DNA of 32,000 nt from Nostoc sp. PCC 7120 = FACHB-418 (GTDB taxonomy: Bacteria > Cyanobacteriota > Cyanobacteriia > Cyanobacteriales > Nostocaceae). The position numbers and the translations under genes were made by a program. The notes under the pieces are model-generated. The model ran no database searches and was not told where the DNA came from. It worked only from the letters and a program-made list of their open reading frames with translations. Each line of letters begins with the position of its first letter. Positions within the stretch are counted from its first letter, which is position 1. The DNA is taken from assembly GCF_000009705.1 (NCBI RefSeq), contig NC_003272.1, positions 570,001-602,000 on the forward strand. The letters are read 5' to 3'. Below, one piece after another: positions 11,671 to 32,000 of the stretch.

Positions 11671-12042
11671 GCAATATTACTCGGATTTTTTTCTAGTATC
11701 AAATAGCCATGGGTATGGAATACGGACAATTATTTTCCATAATAGTGCAATAAGTTACAAGATTTCCACTGTAAATAAAAGTAAATAATCACGAGAACGC
11801 ACTAAAAATAACTTTAGTCAACTTTCTTTCGGATAATTGTTGGGATATAATCTTGACTCAATTATTGTATCTAGGTTAATGTACAGGCGTTCCCAATAGC
11901 GTTAGTCCATTGCCAATAGCAGTAGTAGATGCTACAAATAGCGATAAAATTAATAGGCTATTTGCCCTTAGTAGCTAGTTAAACAGCTACATTAACGATT
12001 AACCGGATAATTAGAGGCAATTTGCAGAAGGAGTGCAACTAA

Positions 12043-25609: not shown

Positions 25610-27223
25610 ATGACGAACGGACAAAACGGACAAAAGAAAAAATTAGAAACCCAGCTTTGGAATATTGCCGACTCGCTGCGGGGCAAAATGAATGCTGATG
25701 AGTTTCGGGATTATTGCTTAGGGTTTATTTTTTACAAGTACCTGTCTGAGCGTCAGCATCTTTATGCTAATGAGGTGTTAGCAGAGGATGGCATTGATTT
25801 TATCAATATTGATGAATCTTCCAAAGAAGGACAAGAATATTTAGAGGCGATTAAAGAGGAGTCAATCGCCACCCTGGGGTATTTTCTCAAGCCGTCAGAG
25901 TTGTTTAGTTCCTTAGCAGAACGGGCTTTAGGGGCGAAAACAGCCAGTGAGGAAAATCTGGCAGATGAGGATTTTGAAGCATCTAACTTTATTTTAGATG
26001 ACTTGACCCAAGTGCTGAGTAGTATTGAACGCTCGACAATGGGGAAGGAAAGCGAAGAGGATTTTGATCACTTGTTTGAGGATCTGGATCTCACTTCCAC
26101 TAAGTTGGGGCGGACTCCCAAAGCGAAGAATGCTTTAATTGCTAAGATTTTAGTGCATCTCAATAAAATTGACTTTCGCCTAGAGGATACGGAAAGCGAT
26201 GTATTGGGCGATGCTTACGAATATTTAATTGGGCAGTTTGCTAGTGGTGCAGGGAAAAAAGCCGGGGAGTTTTACACGCCGCAGCAGGTTTCTAAGGTGT
26301 TGGCGAAGATTGTCACCACGGGGAAAAGTCGCCTGAAGTCGGTTTATGATCCCACCTGTGGTTCGGGTTCGTTGCTGTTGCGGGTGGCGCGGGAGGTGGA
26401 ATCAGTCGGGGATTTTTACGGGCAAGAAATGAACCGCACAACCTACAACCTGGCGCGAATGAATATGATTTTGCATGGGGTGCATTATCGTAATTTCGAT
26501 TTGCGCCAGGAAGATACCCTAGAGAATCCCCAGCATGAGGGTATGCGGTTTGAGGCGGTGGTGGCAAATCCGCCGTTTTCGGCACAGTGGAGTGCTAATA
26601 AACTATTTGAGTCGGATGATCGCTTTAGTCAGTATGGCAAGTTAGCCCCGGCTTCTAAGGCTGATTTTGCCTTTGTACAACACATGATCCATCACCTAGA
26701 TGATAATGGGATTATGGCGGTGGTGTTGCCTCATGGGGTTTTGTTTCGTGGTGCGGCGGAGGGACATATTCGCAAGTATGTGATCAAGGAACGCAATTGG
26801 TTAGATGCGGTGATTGGATTGCCTGCGAATATATTTTATGGGACGAGTATCCCGACTTGTATTTTAGTGTTTAAAAAGTGCCGAGAAAATCCTGACGATA
26901 TTTTATTTATTGATGCTAGTGCCTATTTTGAAAAGGCAAAGAATCAGAATTATTTGCGGGATGAGGATGTAGAGAAAATTGTTTCTACCTATCGGCAAAG
27001 GATACAGTCAGAAAAGTATAGTTATCGCGCCCCATTAACGGAAATTGCGGAGAATGATTTTAATTTAAATATTCCCCGGTATGTGGATACTTTTGAGGAA
27101 GAGGAGGAGATTGATTTAGATGCGGTGGCGCGGGAAATTCGGGAGATTGATCGGGAGATGGTGGAGACGGATCAATTAATTCGCGGGTTTTGTGAGGAAT
27201 TGGGGATTGAGTCACCGTTTTAG
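25610..27223 (+). CDS. hsdM: Type I restriction-modification system methyltransferase subunit HsdM
   Basis: HsdM N-domain LWNIADSLRGKMNADEFRDYCLGFIFYKYLSE, motif I DPTCGSGSLLL and motif IV VVANPPFS. Confidence 0.95.
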   Translation: MTNGQNGQKKKLETQLWNIADSLRGKMNADEFRDYCLGFIFYKYLSERQHLYANEVLAEDGIDFINIDESSKEGQEYLEAIKEESIATLGYFLKPSELFSSLAERALGAKTASEENLADEDFEASNFILDDLTQVLSSIERSTMGKESEEDFDHLFEDLDLTSTKLGRTPKAKNALIAKILVHLNKIDFRLEDTESDVLGDAYEYLIGQFASGAGKKAGEFYTPQQVSKVLAKIVTTGKSRLKSVYDPTCGSGSLLLRVAREVESVGDFYGQEMNRTTYNLARMNMILHGVHYRNFDLRQEDTLENPQHEGMRFEAVVANPPFSAQWSANKLFESDDRFSQYGKLAPASKADFAFVQHMIHHLDDNGIMAVVLPHGVLFRGAAEGHIRKYVIKERNWLDAVIGLPANIFYGTSIPTCILVFKKCRENPDDILFIDASAYFEKAKNQNYLRDEDVEKIVSTYRQRIQSEKYSYRAPLTEIAENDFNLNIPRYVDTFEEEEEIDLDAVAREIREIDREMVETDQLIRGFCEELGIESPF

Positions 27224-27586
27224 GGGTTGTTTGAAAAGTATTATATGAAACCCATAATTTCCAAAAACCTAACCCCCCTACCCCCATTCCCTTGTAGGGA
27301 AGGGGGGAAATTCAAAGCCTCTCCCCGCACTTCGTGCCGCTACGCGAACGCAGGGGCTACGGTGTACACACATCTCTGAGCTAGGTGCATAATGTGGTTC
27401 GATCCCCCTAAATCCCCCTTAAAAAGGGTGACTTTGATTCTAGTTCCCCCTTTTTTAAGGGGGGTTAGGGGGGATCAAAACGATGTGGGACAAGGTTATA
27501 AGACTTGTGTGTACACCGTAGCCTCGCAGGGGAGAGGTTTGGAGAGAGGTTTTTGGGTATATATTTTGACTTTTCAAACAACCTCT
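27222..27586. mobile_element. MITE-like element (about 365 bp) with 18-nt terminal inverted repeats, abutting the hsdM stop codon
   Basis: The left TIR is AGGGGTTGTTTGAAAAGT (27222-27239). The right TIR is ACTTTTCAAACAACCTCT (27569-27586). They match 17/18 as reverse complements. No coding capacity. Confidence 0.8.
27356..27522. mobile_element. Second MITE-like element nested inside the first, itself carrying a palindromic core
   Basis: Perfect 17-nt TIRs: GCTACGGTGTACACACA (27356-27372) and TGTGTGTACACCGTAGC (27506-27522). The inner palindrome is GATCCCCCTAA...TTAGGGGGGATC (27401-27476). Confidence 0.8.
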
Positions 27587-27937: not shown

Positions 27938-27965
27938 ATTGATCTCACCCGTTACCCATTACCTT

Positions 27966-28904
27966 ATGATAGTATCTTCCTCTCAACTTTACGAGCGATT
28001 TATTGAACAGGTAATTGGTTTAAGTCAAAAAAAAGACTTTTCATTAACTGCTTTAATTAGTAACTATGTGAGGATGAATTATCAACTGAAATTAGAGCAA
28101 ATAGACAAGTTAAAGGCTTGGTTAGATGGGTTTAGACCTTTTGATCAAACAATGCTCGCTGAACTGAAAAAGCTCTATGATGTCCGCTTTACTTATAATT
28201 CTAATGCTATTGAAGGGAATACTTTAACTCAAAGTGAAACTGAATTAGTGTTAACTAAAGGGATTACCATTGGCGGTAAAACTCTCAATGAACATTTAGA
28301 GGTGATTGGACATAAGGAAGCGATAGACTATATTGAGAGTTTATCACAAAAAGATACGGAAATTAATGAATGGTAAATTAAACAAATTCATAATCTAATT
28401 CTAAGGAAAATTAACCCGAATGAAGCGGGTTGTTATCGGAATTTAGATGTGATGGCAGCAGGAACAAATTATATTTATCCTCCCCATTATTTACTGTCTC
28501 AATTAATGGCAGATTTTGTTATCTGGCTCAATTCAAATGCTGCTTTAACACTCCATCCGGTAGAATATGCGACAATGGCACATTATCGTTTTGTTTCTAT
28601 CCATCCTTTTCGAGATGGGAATGGGAGAACCGCTAGATTAATTATGAATTTATTGTTAATTCGTGCGGGGTATCCCATTGTGGTGATTAATAATCAAGTC
28701 CGCAATGATTATATTAATGCTTTGGCTTATGGACAACAAAACCAAGATGATTTAAGTGGGCTTTTTGATTTGGTTTGTGATGCGGTTATCAGTTCCTTGG
28801 TGGAAACTTTAAGGTTATTGGTAACTGCTAGTAGTAGTAGGGAAAAGGGGCAGGTTTTTTATCAGGAAATTATTGATTTTATTGATAAAAATGTGGGTAA
28901 ATAG
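27966..28904 (+). pseudogene. Class II Fic-domain protein (AMPylase-type) interrupted by one in-frame TAA
   Basis: Track ORFs 27939..28376 and 28449..28904 are in the same frame. The only interruption is the TAA at 28374-28376, and the reading continues EINEW*IKQIHNLILRKINPNEAGCYRNLDV. The Fic motif HPFRDGNGRTARL and the N-terminal inhibitory motif SNAIEGN are both present. Confidence 0.8.
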
Positions 28905-28956: not shown

Positions 28957-29157
28957 ATGAATACAAGGATTCAATTTACTGCCAAGGTGGAGCAAGGTAA
29001 AATTATTATTCCTGATGAATATATTAGTATGGTTGGTGACAATTTAATTGAGGTAATTATTAAGCCTAAGCCTTCTCGTTTGATGGATCGTCTTGCAGAA
29101 AATCCTTTAACGGCTGTGGGTTGGCGTGATTTGTCAAGAGATGATATTCATGAATAA
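28957..29157 (+). CDS. AbrB/SpoVT-like antitoxin
   Basis: 66 aa with GKIIIPDEY-type looped-hinge-helix pattern. Its stop overlaps the start of the PIN gene. Confidence 0.6.
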   Translation: MNTRIQFTAKVEQGKIIIPDEYISMVGDNLIEVIIKPKPSRLMDRLAENPLTAVGWRDLSRDDIHE

Positions 29158-29608
29158 TTTTATAGATAAAAAGTTTATTGACTCTAATATTTGGCTGTAT
29201 CGGTTTCTTCATGATCCAAAAGTAGATCCTCAAGTGCAGCAATTAAAAAGAAGTATGGCTATTAATTTAACTCAAGCTGTTGATCGCAGTATTGTAGTTA
29301 GCACTCAGGTTATCACTGAAACTTGTGCTGTACTCAAACGGAAAACAGGAATTTCTGAACAGAATATTTTAGAGTTAGTAGAGGAGTTTGAAGAACAGTG
29401 TGAAATTGTCAACCTGACAACAAGTGAGATCAAAGAAGCTTGTCGATTAAGAGATAAATATTCTTTTTCGTATTGGGATAGTCTTGTTATTGCTACTGCT
29501 CTAAAGTCTCAGGCTAAGGTTCTATATTCGGAAGATATGCAAAATGGATTATTGATTGAAAATCAATTAACAATTATCAATCCGTTTGTAGGATCGGGAA
29601 ATAGGTAA
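29150..29608 (+). CDS. PIN-domain toxin (VapC-like ribonuclease)
   Basis: The ATG at 29150 overlaps the antitoxin stop by 8 nt. Acidic PIN residues appear in FIDSNIW, ITETCAV, YWDSLVIATAL and LYSEDMQ. Confidence 0.75.
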   Translation: MNNFIDKKFIDSNIWLYRFLHDPKVDPQVQQLKRSMAINLTQAVDRSIVVSTQVITETCAVLKRKTGISEQNILELVEEFEEQCEIVNLTTSEIKEACRLRDKYSFSYWDSLVIATALKSQAKVLYSEDMQNGLLIENQLTIINPFVGSGNR

Positions 29609-29784
29609 TGGGTAAGAAGGTAAAGAAAAATGTGCCTCAGTTGCGGTTTCCTGAGTTTGTGGAAGTTCTCAAACTTACATATCTTGGTGAAATATTAGAC
29701 TTCAAAAATGGTATCAATGCAGATAAATCACAGTATGGTAAAGGATATAAATTTATAAACGTTTTAGATATTATTAATGATTAA
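29608..29784 (+). pseudogene. hsdS: Truncated hsdS (type I R-M specificity subunit), N-terminal 58 codons only
   Basis: MGKKVKKNVPQLRFPEFVEVLKLTYLGEILDFKNGINADKSQYGKGYKFINVLDIIND then stop. This is a typical HsdS N-terminus, but full-length HsdS is several hundred aa. The ATG overlaps the PIN stop (TAATG). Confidence 0.7.
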
Positions 29785-29872: not shown

Positions 29873-30457
29873 ATGATTGTGGCAAAAGATAATACCCCAC
29901 ACCTTACCCCTGAAGAATACTTTGCTTGGGAAGAACAGCAACTAGAAAAACACGAATATATCAACGGCGAAGTTTACGCCATGACTGGCGGTAGCATCAA
30001 TCATGGGCGTATCGGTATCCGCTTCACCGCCATGTTCGACAGCCACTTAGAAAATACAGGCTGCATCACTGGCAACTCTGATGTCAAGCTCAATATTTTT
30101 GGCAGTAATAATTATACCTACCCAGATGCCAGCGTTACTTGCGACGATCGCGACAAAACCACAACCCGATATATTACCTACCCCTGCTTAATCGTCGAAG
30201 TCCTCTCAAAAACTACCGAAGCTTATGACAGAGGCGGAAAATTTAGAATGTACCGCCAAAACCCAGCCTTAATAGATTACCTCCTAGTCAGTTCCACCAG
30301 CATCGAAATTGACCTTTATCACAAAAACGACGCAGGCGACTGGTTAATTATCAACTACAAACCAGGCGATACAATTGAACTCAAAAGCATTAACCTAAGT
30401 TTCCCCATTGAACAAGTCTATCGCGGTTTAACCCTTGAACCAGAGAATGGGGAATAG
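29873..30457 (+). CDS. Uma2-family (DUF820) PD-(D/E)XK putative endonuclease
   Basis: LTPEEYFAWEEQQLEKHEYINGEVYAM, then PDASV...IVEVLSK (D...ExK). Confidence 0.85.
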   Translation: MIVAKDNTPHLTPEEYFAWEEQQLEKHEYINGEVYAMTGGSINHGRIGIRFTAMFDSHLENTGCITGNSDVKLNIFGSNNYTYPDASVTCDDRDKTTTRYITYPCLIVEVLSKTTEAYDRGGKFRMYRQNPALIDYLLVSSTSIEIDLYHKNDAGDWLIINYKPGDTIELKSINLSFPIEQVYRGLTLEPENGE

Positions 30458-30491: not shown

Positions 30492-31676
30492 ATGAAAATT
30501 GTTTCTATAAAAATTAAAAATTATCGAGCCTTTGAATCTCTAGAAATCAAAGAAATTCCCACCTTTTGCGTCATCATCGGAGCAAATGGTACAGGTAAAT
30601 CTACCCTATTCGATATTTTTGGCTTTCTCCGCGATGCCCTAAAAAATAACATTCGTCAAGCCCTTCAGATCCGGGGTGGATTTAATGAAGTCGTCACTAG
30701 AGGCAAAGAACAAGAAGATATCGAAATAGAACTAAAATTCCGCATGAATATTCTGGAGACAGAACGTCTCGTTACCTATATTTTAAATGTTGGACAAGAA
30801 GAAAGACGACCCTTAGTTAAAAGAGAAATACTCCGGTACAAGCGTGGCGAATATGGTTCTCCCTATCACTTTCTCGACTTCCAAAACGGTAAAGGATATG
30901 CCATCACCAACGAAGAAAACTTTGAACAAACCGACGAAGAACTACAACGTGAAGAACAACAACTCGAATCCAATGATATTTTAGCAATTAAAGGACTGGG
31001 GCAATTTCAACGCTTCAAAGCCGCCAGTGCCTTCCGTTCACTAATTGAAAATTGGCACGTTTCCGACTTCCATATCAGCGATGCTAGAGGCAGCAAAGAC
31101 GCACTCTATGCCGAACATCTCTCCCCCACAGGCGATAATATGGCACTTGTCGCCCAATACATTTATCAAAACCATCCCGATATATTCCAAACCATCCTCA
31201 CAAAAATGCAGGAAAGAGTCCCCGGTATTTCTAAAGTAGAAGCAAAGGAAACAGAAGACGGCAGATTAATCCTGAAATTTCAAGACCAAGCTTTTAAAGA
31301 TCCCTTCATTGATCGCTATGTTTCTGATGGCACAATGAAAATGTTTGCCTATTTAATTCTGCTCTTCGATCCTAAACCCCATCCTTTACTTTGCGTCGAA
31401 GAACCCGAAAACCAACTTTATCCTAGTTTGCTTCACGAACTCGCCGAAGAATTTGCCAGTTATGCCCACAGAGGCGGACAAGTCTTTGTGTCTACCCACT
31501 CCCCCGACTTTCTGAATGCTGTTCCCCTAGAAAGTATTTTCTGGTTGACAAAAGAACAAGGCACTACAAAAATTTTCCGAGCCAGCGATAATGAAACCCT
31601 GAACAACTTAGTGAAAGCAGGAGATTTACCTGGCTATCTCTGGAATCAAGGCTGGTTTGAAGGAGTCGCCCCCTGA
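30492..31676 (+). CDS. ABC-type AAA ATPase (AAA_21/AAA_15-like, OLD/RloA-like)
   Basis: I prefer the ATG at 30492 (MKIVSIKIKNYRAFESL). Walker A is GANGTGKST, the signature-like motif is SDGTMKMF, Walker B is LLCVEEPENQLYP and the H-loop is VSTHSP. Confidence 0.85.
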   Translation: MKIVSIKIKNYRAFESLEIKEIPTFCVIIGANGTGKSTLFDIFGFLRDALKNNIRQALQIRGGFNEVVTRGKEQEDIEIELKFRMNILETERLVTYILNVGQEERRPLVKREILRYKRGEYGSPYHFLDFQNGKGYAITNEENFEQTDEELQREEQQLESNDILAIKGLGQFQRFKAASAFRSLIENWHVSDFHISDARGSKDALYAEHLSPTGDNMALVAQYIYQNHPDIFQTILTKMQERVPGISKVEAKETEDGRLILKFQDQAFKDPFIDRYVSDGTMKMFAYLILLFDPKPHPLLCVEEPENQLYPSLLHELAEEFASYAHRGGQVFVSTHSPDFLNAVPLESIFWLTKEQGTTKIFRASDNETLNNLVKAGDLPGYLWNQGWFEGVAP

Positions 31677-32000
31677 TGAGCTATGACTTGATTTTTTTAC
31701 TAGAAGAACCTTCTATAGAAAATGTTTTAAAGGAAATCTTACCCAAAATAATTCCTGATGAAATTTCTTTTATTTGTATTCCTCACCAAGGTAAACAGGA
31801 CTTAGCTAAATCTATACCAAAAAAAATTAGAGCTTTTCAATTTAACCCTGACACAAAATTTGTTATTGTTCACGATCAAGACTCCCACGACTGTAAAAAC
31901 CTCAAATCAGAACTTTTAGAAATTTGTCAAAATGCAGGAAACAAAAACATACTGATCCGAATAATCTGTCATGAACTAGAATCTTGGTTTTTGGGTGATT
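31676..32000 (+). CDS. DUF4276-family protein (partial, continues beyond window)
   Basis: Not in the track because it has no stop in the window. The ATG at 31676 overlaps the ATPase stop (TGATG). Translation: MSYDLIFLLEEPSIENVLKEILPKIIP...FVIVHDQDSHDC...ICHELESWFLGD. The LLEEPS and ELESWFLGD patterns fit my memory of DUF4276. Confidence 0.6.
   Translation, partial: MSYDLIFLLEEPSIENVLKEILPKIIPDEISFICIPHQGKQDLAKSIPKKIRAFQFNPDTKFVIVHDQDSHDCKNLKSELLEICQNAGNKNILIRIICHELESWFLGD

Follow-up and report, generated by a model that had tools for sequence, protein, structure and literature searches.

An ABC-type ATPase gene and an overlapping DUF4276 gene close a 32,000-nucleotide (nt) stretch of Nostoc sp. 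PCC 7120 (contig NC_003272.1, positions 570,001 to 602,000; hereafter the window, in whose numbering coordinates are given unless a contig is named). On the evidence of its sequence, the pair is a new cyanobacterial member of HEC-01, a family of candidate anti-phage systems that is catalogued but unvalidated. HEC-01 (in PADLOC, "Hma-embedded candidate 01") was described by Payne et al. as an ABC ATPase paired with a TOPRIM protein, encoded inside Hma systems, with a metal-binding site similar to that of BpOLD (bioRxiv 10.1101/2024.01.29.577857). The reading that we favour, at slightly better than even chances, is that the pair forms a self-contained two-gene OLD-like defence module, in which the ATPase is the presumed sensor or regulator and the Toprim protein the presumed nuclease effector. 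Related loci were collected by scanning one genome per species; the 185,579 species genomes gave 273 confirmed loci for this clade, of which 80 were kept. Residue conservation and selection were assessed on 72 orthologous loci and the gene junction on 81. For the stretch beyond the end of the window we used locus L001 (contig JACJQC010000009.1 of GCA_014696465.1), an exact match to the ATPase sequence; an exact-sequence look-up showed that a metagenomic contig identical to L001 also carries the ATPase.

The ATPase gene (30492..31676, plus strand) was delimited as an open reading frame (ORF) of 394 codons, with a TGA stop whose last base is 31676, and was assigned through Pfam and PADLOC as the HEC-01 ATPase component. 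We take the ATG at 30492 as its true start, and not the upstream TTG at 30435, because positions 1-394 of the 395 in the PADLOC model PDLC04144 align with residues 1-394 and because the homologues are 394-395 residues long. The match to PDLC04144 extends over the full length (E = 1.9e-204, 677 bits), and ten more HEC-01 ATPase models also match; weaker PADLOC matches were found to AriA (1.1e-30), AbiLi (2e-25), mad3 (4e-25), NsnB and GajA. In Pfam, the protein matches AAA_21 (6.9e-30) and AAA_15 (4.5e-24). A first-pass annotation of the window, made from the letters alone, had read four ABC motifs in this protein, and all four are there on the plus strand: the Walker A motif GANGTGKST (residues 30-38; 30579-30605), the signature motif SDGTMKMF (residues 278-285; SDGT at 31323-31334), the Walker B motif LLCVEEPEN (residues 299-307; LLCVEE at 31386-31403) and the H-loop motif THSP (residues 335-338; His at 31497-31499). 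The Walker A lysine, the Walker B glutamates, the SDGT signature and the H-loop histidine are invariant in the orthologous loci. The set of motifs predicted to serve ATP binding and hydrolysis is complete. An AlphaFold2 model of the ATPase is weak, with a pLDDT (predicted local distance difference test) score of 65 and a predicted template modelling (pTM) score of 0.67. Foldseek groups it with the ABC heads of PtuA, retron-associated PtuA, Rad50, SMC, OLD (6p74) and GajA (8sm3); we use the model only to place the protein among Rad50/SMC/OLD/PtuA-type heads and not to choose its nearest relative. Comparison of the ATPase sequence with Protein Data Bank (PDB) chains gave marginal matches only.

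The window truncates the DUF4276 gene after codon 108 of 187. This part of the gene (31676..32000, plus strand; assigned through Pfam, PADLOC and an AlphaFold2 model) translates as MSYDLIFLLEEPS...HDQDS...HELESWFLGD up to the end of the window. The first-pass annotation had called for the rest of the sequence, and the complete gene was recovered from L001:11185-11748; it encodes a protein of 187 residues and ends at window-equivalent position 32239. Against PF14103, the window fragment scores 29.5 bits, just below the gathering threshold of 30.2 bits, and the full-length protein, aligned with model positions 2-191 of 192, reaches 53.5 bits, which confirms the earlier naming of the product as DUF4276. 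In PADLOC, the protein matches PDLC04143 over its full length (1.5e-65; 5.1e-39 for the window fragment), and all of its 15 matches at E<=1 are to HEC-01 models. Two of the database searches that the first-pass annotation had proposed agree: PADLOC returns HEC-01 at full length for both proteins, and Pfam returns AAA_21 and AAA_15 for the ATPase and PF14103 for its completed partner. The E-values of these matches lie well outside what chance would give. The A and B labels of PDLC04143 and PDLC04144 are swapped relative to those of the other HEC-01 models, so that the best match of the ATPase is named "HEC-01B" and that of the DUF4276 protein "HEC-01A".

An AlphaFold2 model of the DUF4276 protein, built on 22 homologues, reached a pLDDT of 84.1 and a pTM of 0.81. 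It has a topology of four beta-alpha units, with strands at residues 5-9, 32-36, 61-68 and 92-98 and helices between them, followed by a helical C-terminal part. The sole significant PDB match of the model found by Foldseek was to 6nk8_B (E 1.1e-4, probability 1.0, TM score 0.52), and the matched region is the C-terminal Toprim region of the Burkholderia pseudomallei OLD nuclease (BpOLD). Three acidic pairs are 100% conserved in the 72 loci: E10/E11, after strand 1 (31703-31708), D67xD69, at the end of strand 3 (31874-31882), and E100xE102, after strand 4 (31973-31981), all on the plus strand. The protein thus combines the features expected of a Toprim domain, namely, in the model, a three-layer alpha/beta fold of four parallel strands, and in the sequence a Glu after strand 1 and a DxD after strand 3. 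As modelled, the DUF4276 partner has a Toprim-like fold, which the first-pass annotation had anticipated, and published analyses place DUF4276 in the Toprim superfamily (PMC12065111; bioRxiv 10.1101/2024.01.29.577857). A DUF4276 profile run against the sequences of PDB chains returned only noise (best E 0.06), and only the fold comparison was informative. No NCBIfam family was found for DUF4276. A profile search of 1.84 billion representative proteins (E<=1e-3) gave 1744 clusters; the top 150 representatives are 94-288 residues long, mostly around 180-200, and none of these 150 is fused to an ATPase or long enough to be.

Two side observations concern this protein family. SL4P (PF17618), a nematode family, matches residues 20-95 of the DUF4276 protein with 29 bits, slightly more than its own cut-off of 28.1, which may reflect a relation to DUF4276 or an origin of SL4P from contamination. 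In a few genomes, moreover, the DUF4276 gene is found in two tblastn segments (Chrysosporum bergii, L062:10001-10562; L055/L058, a Pseudanabaena metagenome-assembled genome, or MAG); such split copies look like occasional pseudogenes or assembly errors.

The two genes are tightly joined. The TGA of the ATPase gene and the ATG of the DUF4276 gene (31676) have one base in common, in a TGATG that was read directly from the sequence (31674..31678, plus strand) and that the first-pass annotation had already pointed out. A 1-nt overlap of this kind, TAATG or TGATG, is found in 61 of the 81 junctions, and several others have an ATGA overlap. The overlap of stop and start suggests that translation of the two genes is coupled. 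Of the 80 loci, 79 have an ATPase homologue immediately upstream of the DUF4276 gene, on the same strand; the exception, L050, has a truncated DUF4276 copy only. The expectation that the genes are conserved as a pair therefore holds. The 80 loci include members from Cyanobacteria, Methylococcales, a Blastocatellia MAG and Oceanobacter, with 50-55% identity of the DUF4276 protein in the non-cyanobacterial ones. The median pairwise ratio of nonsynonymous to synonymous substitution rates (dN/dS) is 0.071 for the ATPase and 0.147 for the DUF4276 gene, and dS is saturated between cyanobacterial orders. Given the near-universal adjacency, the conserved overlap and the low dN/dS at saturated synonymous sites, we conclude that the pair is, as far as comparison of sequences can tell, old, coupled and strongly constrained by purifying selection. 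Outside the two coding sequences the loci show no homology to one another, save for about 20 nt upstream in some. A search around the cassette for a conserved leader or a third component yielded nothing beyond that short upstream stretch.

In this genome the pair lies inside a type I restriction-modification (R-M) locus, between a remnant of hsdS and hsdR. The gene order on L001 is hsdM, a small ORF, Fic, a VapB-like ORF, PIN, the hsdS stub, Uma2, ATPase, DUF4276 and hsdR, and downstream of hsdR follow the housekeeping genes DUF2227, MazG, AhpC and ThyX. The methyltransferase gene hsdM (25610..27223, plus strand; Pfam N6_Mtase 1.5e-109, HsdM_N) is intact and forms the upstream border of the locus. 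The specificity gene is reduced to a stub of 58 residues (29608..29784, plus strand), identified by tblastn: the intact 419-residue HsdS of L065 matches the stub alone (50% identity over 42 residues), the remainder of hsdS being deleted, and the HsdS proteins of intact relatives at the same position have 374-419 residues. The hsdR gene (L001:11755-14639, beyond the end of the window) matches the intact protein of L026 in three frames, which places two frameshifts, at about 11834-11847 and 12480-12487 of L001. Judged from these reading frames, the R-M system is decayed here while the pair is intact. The description of the pair as riding on an R-M island thus stands for its position; it does not extend to a working R-M system, nor to most of the relatives, which lie outside R-M loci. 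In a scan of L001 6500-15000 for promoters and terminators, the number of sites did not exceed that in shuffled sequence, and the plus strand had no terminator; the result fits one long operon without being evidence for one.

The same slot is found in R-M loci that have not decayed. Four loci (L005, from Nostoc sp. CHAB 5824, and L016, L023 and L026) have the order hsdM-hsdS-(Uma2)-ATPase-DUF4276-hsdR with an intact hsdS (374-419 residues) and an intact hsdR (about 955 residues); L065 has the same R-M and pair genes, but three small ORFs separate the pair from hsdR. A partial hsdM-to-hsdR order is present on three shorter contigs, and remnants are present in L003, L038 and L062. In these loci, the gap between the DUF4276 stop and the hsdR start is 5-7 nt. 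The slot recurs on plasmid pMtWR-220 of Meiothermus taiwanensis (L085, 47824-59681), in the order hsdM-DUF262-hsdS-DarT-DarG-ATPase-DUF4276-hsdR, with a DUF4276 protein that is 28% identical to the one studied here. The type I R-M operon of pMtWR-220 holds three modules between hsdM and hsdR, namely DUF262 (GmrSD/BrxU-like), DarT-DarG and ATPase-DUF4276. On the plasmid pSYSM of Synechocystis PCC 6803 (L083, NC_005229.1 25994-27735), a 73%-identical pair (WP_011153560/WP_011153561) follows directly after a cysteine desulfurase gene, among neighbours that include a phosphorothioation-associated methyltransferase, HNH, HEPN/MNT, RelE/HigA and DUF4007. Our search for literature on the pSYSM pair, or on pSYSM and phosphorothioation, found none.

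Such an arrangement could mean that the pair is a functional part of a type I R-M system or a methylation system, in the manner of MADS, acting as an extra ATP-dependent restriction nuclease that the methylation by HsdM/HsdS directs or restrains. The constant slot right upstream of hsdR, separated from it by 5-7 nt or overlapping it, both in the R-M loci of cyanobacteria and in Meiothermus, would agree with this, as would the DNA-modification genes that adjoin the pSYSM pair. In MADS, moreover, defence requires both mad3 and mad4, and loss of the methyltransferase gene mad5 is tolerated only if mad2 or mad3 is deleted as well (bioRxiv 10.1101/2023.03.30.534895). Against it, R-M genes are lacking in the neighbourhood of about 85% of the 80 loci, where housekeeping genes flank the pair; among the flanking genes of these loci are those for IleRS, MutS, CobN, GyrA, PcrA, a penicillin-binding protein and NdhF. 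The state of the locus studied here also speaks against such a role, since the pair remains intact and constrained next to a 58-residue hsdS stub and an hsdR with two frameshifts. The same holds for the syntenic site in Anabaena azotica FACHB-119 (L003) and Anabaena sp. UHCC 0187 (L008), where Uma2-ATPase-DUF4276 precedes the DUF2227-MazG genes that are also present here and the R-M genes are gone, except for a 22-residue remnant of hsdR in L003. If cognate methylation were needed for self-protection, such decayed or lost R-M states should be lethal. We therefore regard a role as a working part of the R-M system as very unlikely. Both Anabaena genomes keep the pair after loss of the R-M genes; the pair thus survives the disappearance of the R-M system around it. 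Because most loci lie outside R-M loci, because the R-M system has decayed here around an intact pair, and because these two genomes retain the pair without the R-M genes, the pair probably acts on its own and does not need the R-M system.

How a self-contained module of this kind might work is suggested by analogy with PARIS AriA/AriB, Gabija, P2 Old and MADS Mad3/Mad4. Oligomers of the ATPase would keep the nuclease inactive; a cue associated with infection would alter the nucleotide state or the conformation of the ATPase; and the Toprim domain, released or activated, would cut nucleic acid (DNA or tRNA) by metal-dependent catalysis. The cleavage would halt phage replication, probably at a cost to the cell. 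In the recurrent slot right upstream of hsdR, the pair would probably be co-transcribed and would provide a second line of defence. Support for a defence role comes from the recurrence of this slot in intact R-M loci and in Meiothermus, from the neighbours of the pSYSM pair and from the validated relatives Mad3-Mad4, whose genes MADS needs for defence (bioRxiv 10.1101/2023.03.30.534895).

Several observations weigh against a defence module of this type. The sole representative of HEC-01 to have been tested failed, in E. coli, to protect against any of the phages used (bioRxiv 10.1101/2024.01.29.577857), and the statement of the first-pass annotation that the pair is a likely functional defence system must be regarded as unproven. 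The ATPase is 81-98% identical across cyanobacterial orders between which dS is saturated, which is unusually conserved for a sensor of infection. No homologue was found in 50,697 phage records, and there is no PHROG family. Many of the loci are stable insertions among housekeeping genes, for example at the same site in 10 Microcystis genomes, between genes for a FAD reductase and aroB, and four Methylococcales carry the pair between prfB and lysS. The ATPase model, at a pLDDT of 65, is a weak basis for structural comparison. In the four Methylococcales (L076, L078, L079 and L082), the DUF4276 protein is 50-52% identical and the ATPase 62-64% identical to those of the window. In gammaproteobacteria, prfB and lysS are normally adjacent and co-transcribed.

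Some of these observations would suit a cellular role outside defence, in which a Rad50/SbcC- or RecF-like ATPase and a Toprim nuclease take part in DNA or RNA metabolism, for instance in repair or RNA processing. Very strong purifying selection, with high amino acid identity across orders at saturated dS, points in that direction, and so do the stable syntenic insertions in Microcystis and at prfB/lysS, the likeness of the (weak) ATPase model to Rad50 and SMC heads as well, the absence from phage records and the negative phage test of HEC-01. The distribution of the pair is patchy, however, with 273 confirmed loci among the 185,579 species genomes, and it occurs on plasmids and recurs within R-M and modification islands of distant phyla. 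Its best-scoring relatives, HEC-01, AriA, AbiLi, mad3, NsnB and GajA, are all defence components, and the lack of homology between loci outside the coding sequences is what one would expect of a mobile cassette. On balance, a housekeeping function of this sort seems unlikely to us.

It also seems conceivable, if improbable, that the pair is a conserved guard that monitors a cellular state, such as the integrity or inhibition of restriction and modification or of a core nucleic-acid process, and not fast-evolving phage proteins. Its Toprim effector might then cut RNA such as tRNA, by analogy with AriB and PrrC. A guard of this kind would account for the slot upstream of hsdR in distant phyla, the unusually strong purifying selection on the ATPase, the persistence of the pair after decay of the R-M genes and the failed test in E. 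coli.

Between hsdM and the hsdS stub lies a Fic-domain gene (27939..28904, plus strand), with a Pfam Fic match (7.3e-17) on its C-terminal half. An in-frame stop (28374-28376) breaks it: when the intact Fic proteins of L023 and L038 served as tblastn queries, a high-scoring segment pair in a single frame (27966-28886) ran across the stop, and a frameshift was rejected on the same grounds. It is followed by a VapB-like small ORF that overlaps a PIN-domain gene, together a VapBC-like toxin-antitoxin (TA) pair (28957..29608, plus strand; Pfam PIN 4.7e-15). The VapB-like/PIN pair, embedded between Fic and the hsdS stub, is also found in Chrysosporum bergii (L062). The Uma2-family gene (29873..30457, plus strand; Pfam Uma2 4.2e-35), whose product is PD-(D/E)xK-like, ends 34 nt upstream of the ATPase gene. 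An orthologue with 71-91% identity lies just upstream of the pair in 14 of the 80 loci, directly adjacent in 12 of them, in several cyanobacterial orders and in both R-M and non-R-M contexts; it may be an optional accessory or third component that accompanies the pair. Right after the hsdM stop, nested inverted repeats (arms of 18-31 nt, 84-94% complementary) make up a palindromic element of about 365 nt (27222-27586). The element resembles a miniature inverted-repeat transposable element, and spurious ORFs within it give strings of the PPFLRGVRGD type, which are typical of cyanobacterial repeats.

The TA genes are relevant to the possibility that the pair is itself an addiction or stabilisation module, with the Toprim protein as toxin and the ATPase as its neutraliser, that serves retention of an island or plasmid and for which phage defence is at most a by-product. 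Other TA pairs adjoin it: the VapBC-like genes here, RelE/HigA on pSYSM and DarTG in Meiothermus. The pair is also plasmid-borne on pSYSM, pPSE7367.01 and pMtWR-220, it forms a tight two-gene operon with apparent translational coupling, and it persists as neighbouring genes decay. On the other side, an ATPase of 394 residues with a full catalytic site and a dN/dS of 0.07 goes far beyond a simple antitoxin in complexity, and PARIS, Gabija, Old and MADS3-4 are documented defence systems and not plain TA modules (PMC11464382). We consider an addiction module to be rather unlikely and retain the self-contained defence module as our working interpretation.

HEC-01-type ATPase/DUF4276 pairs are listed in PADLOC without a demonstrated function, and the single published test was negative. 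The close homologue on pSYSM, in a modification-type defence island of the genetically tractable Synechocystis PCC 6803, offers a practical native host for knock-outs and for work on toxicity and triggers. Such work could decide whether Toprim proteins of the DUF4276 family are genuine effectors of defence. Apart from this pointer to a native host, the pair is a routine member of the large OLD-like class of ABC-ATPase/Toprim systems.

Membership of that class, which the first-pass annotation had illustrated with OLD, Gabija, PARIS and restriction-linked rloA/rloB genes, is borne out, and the individual systems can be compared with the pair. A study of Menshen places DUF4276 and RloB in the Toprim superfamily and names Mad4 as a DUF4276 homologue (PMC12065111), and a study of PARIS counts AbiL and MADS3-4 among the systems that combine an ABC ATPase with a TOPRIM protein (PMC11464382). 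The Mad3-Mad4 pair of MADS from Pseudomonas aeruginosa shares with the present pair an AAA15/21-type ABC ATPase and a DUF4276-type Toprim protein in a methylation-based defence operon (PMC11464382; PMC12065111); the pair studied here differs in that it is also found alone. Membership of MADS was rejected: the ATPase scores 127.9 bits against an NCBIfam MAD3 equivalog cut-off of 420 bits, with only residues 154-372 covered, its PADLOC match to mad3 is 4e-25 as against 1.9e-204 for HEC-01, and the mandatory mad6, mad7 and mad8 are absent from the locus (L001 gene list).

PARIS, a class 4 OLD-like system, also encodes its ABC ATPase and its Toprim nuclease separately, and the ATPase of the window is a distant homologue of AriA (1.1e-30). 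In the working model of PARIS, the ATPase scaffold senses an anti-restriction protein and releases the Toprim (t)RNase (PMC11464382). PARIS is typically carried by phage satellites, whereas the present pair has no homologue in the 50,697 phage records. We rejected membership of PARIS on its partner: AriB belongs to DUF4435 (PF14491), which our DUF4276 protein does not match (Pfam at E<=1 gave DUF4276 and a marginal SL4P), and there is no AriB match in PADLOC. AbiL and RloA-RloB likewise combine an AAA_21-type ATPase with a small Toprim-superfamily partner, sometimes in type I R-M loci, and the ATPase matches AbiLi (2e-25). The partner belongs to another family, with no match to RloB (PF13707) even at E<=1, and the AbiLi match compares with 1.9e-204 for HEC-01; membership was rejected, and the earlier description of the pair as rloA/rloB-like is tenable as an analogy of architecture only.

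P2 Old and Gabija GajA (classes 1-2 OLD) have an ABC head and a Toprim domain with a Glu and a DxD; the structural matches of this kind are 6nk8 for the nuclease and 6p74 and 8sm3 for the ATPase. In these proteins, the two domains are fused in one polypeptide, whereas here they are encoded by two genes and the Pfam family Toprim_OLD is not matched. Gabija, moreover, requires the GajB helicase, and there is no helicase here. PD-T4-4 (Vassallo et al. 2022) resembles the pair in having two genes, with an AAA15-type ABC ATPase as component A, and the first-pass annotation had tentatively equated the two. PD-T4-4_B is a PD-(D/E)xK nuclease (PMC12137116; PMC10952713; bioRxiv 10.1101/2025.07.10.664194). 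The partner here has, by its model, a Toprim fold, and its 15 PADLOC matches at E<=1 are all to HEC-01 and none to PD-T4-4; we therefore regard that identification as wrong.

With HEC-01, finally, the pair shares both protein families, matched by full-length hidden Markov models, as well as the gene order. At this locus the pair is likewise embedded, in the same orientation, in a multi-gene defence system, but this host system is a decayed type I R-M locus and not Hma, and about 85% of the related loci are not embedded at all. It also differs from HEC-01 as described in its cyanobacterial clade.

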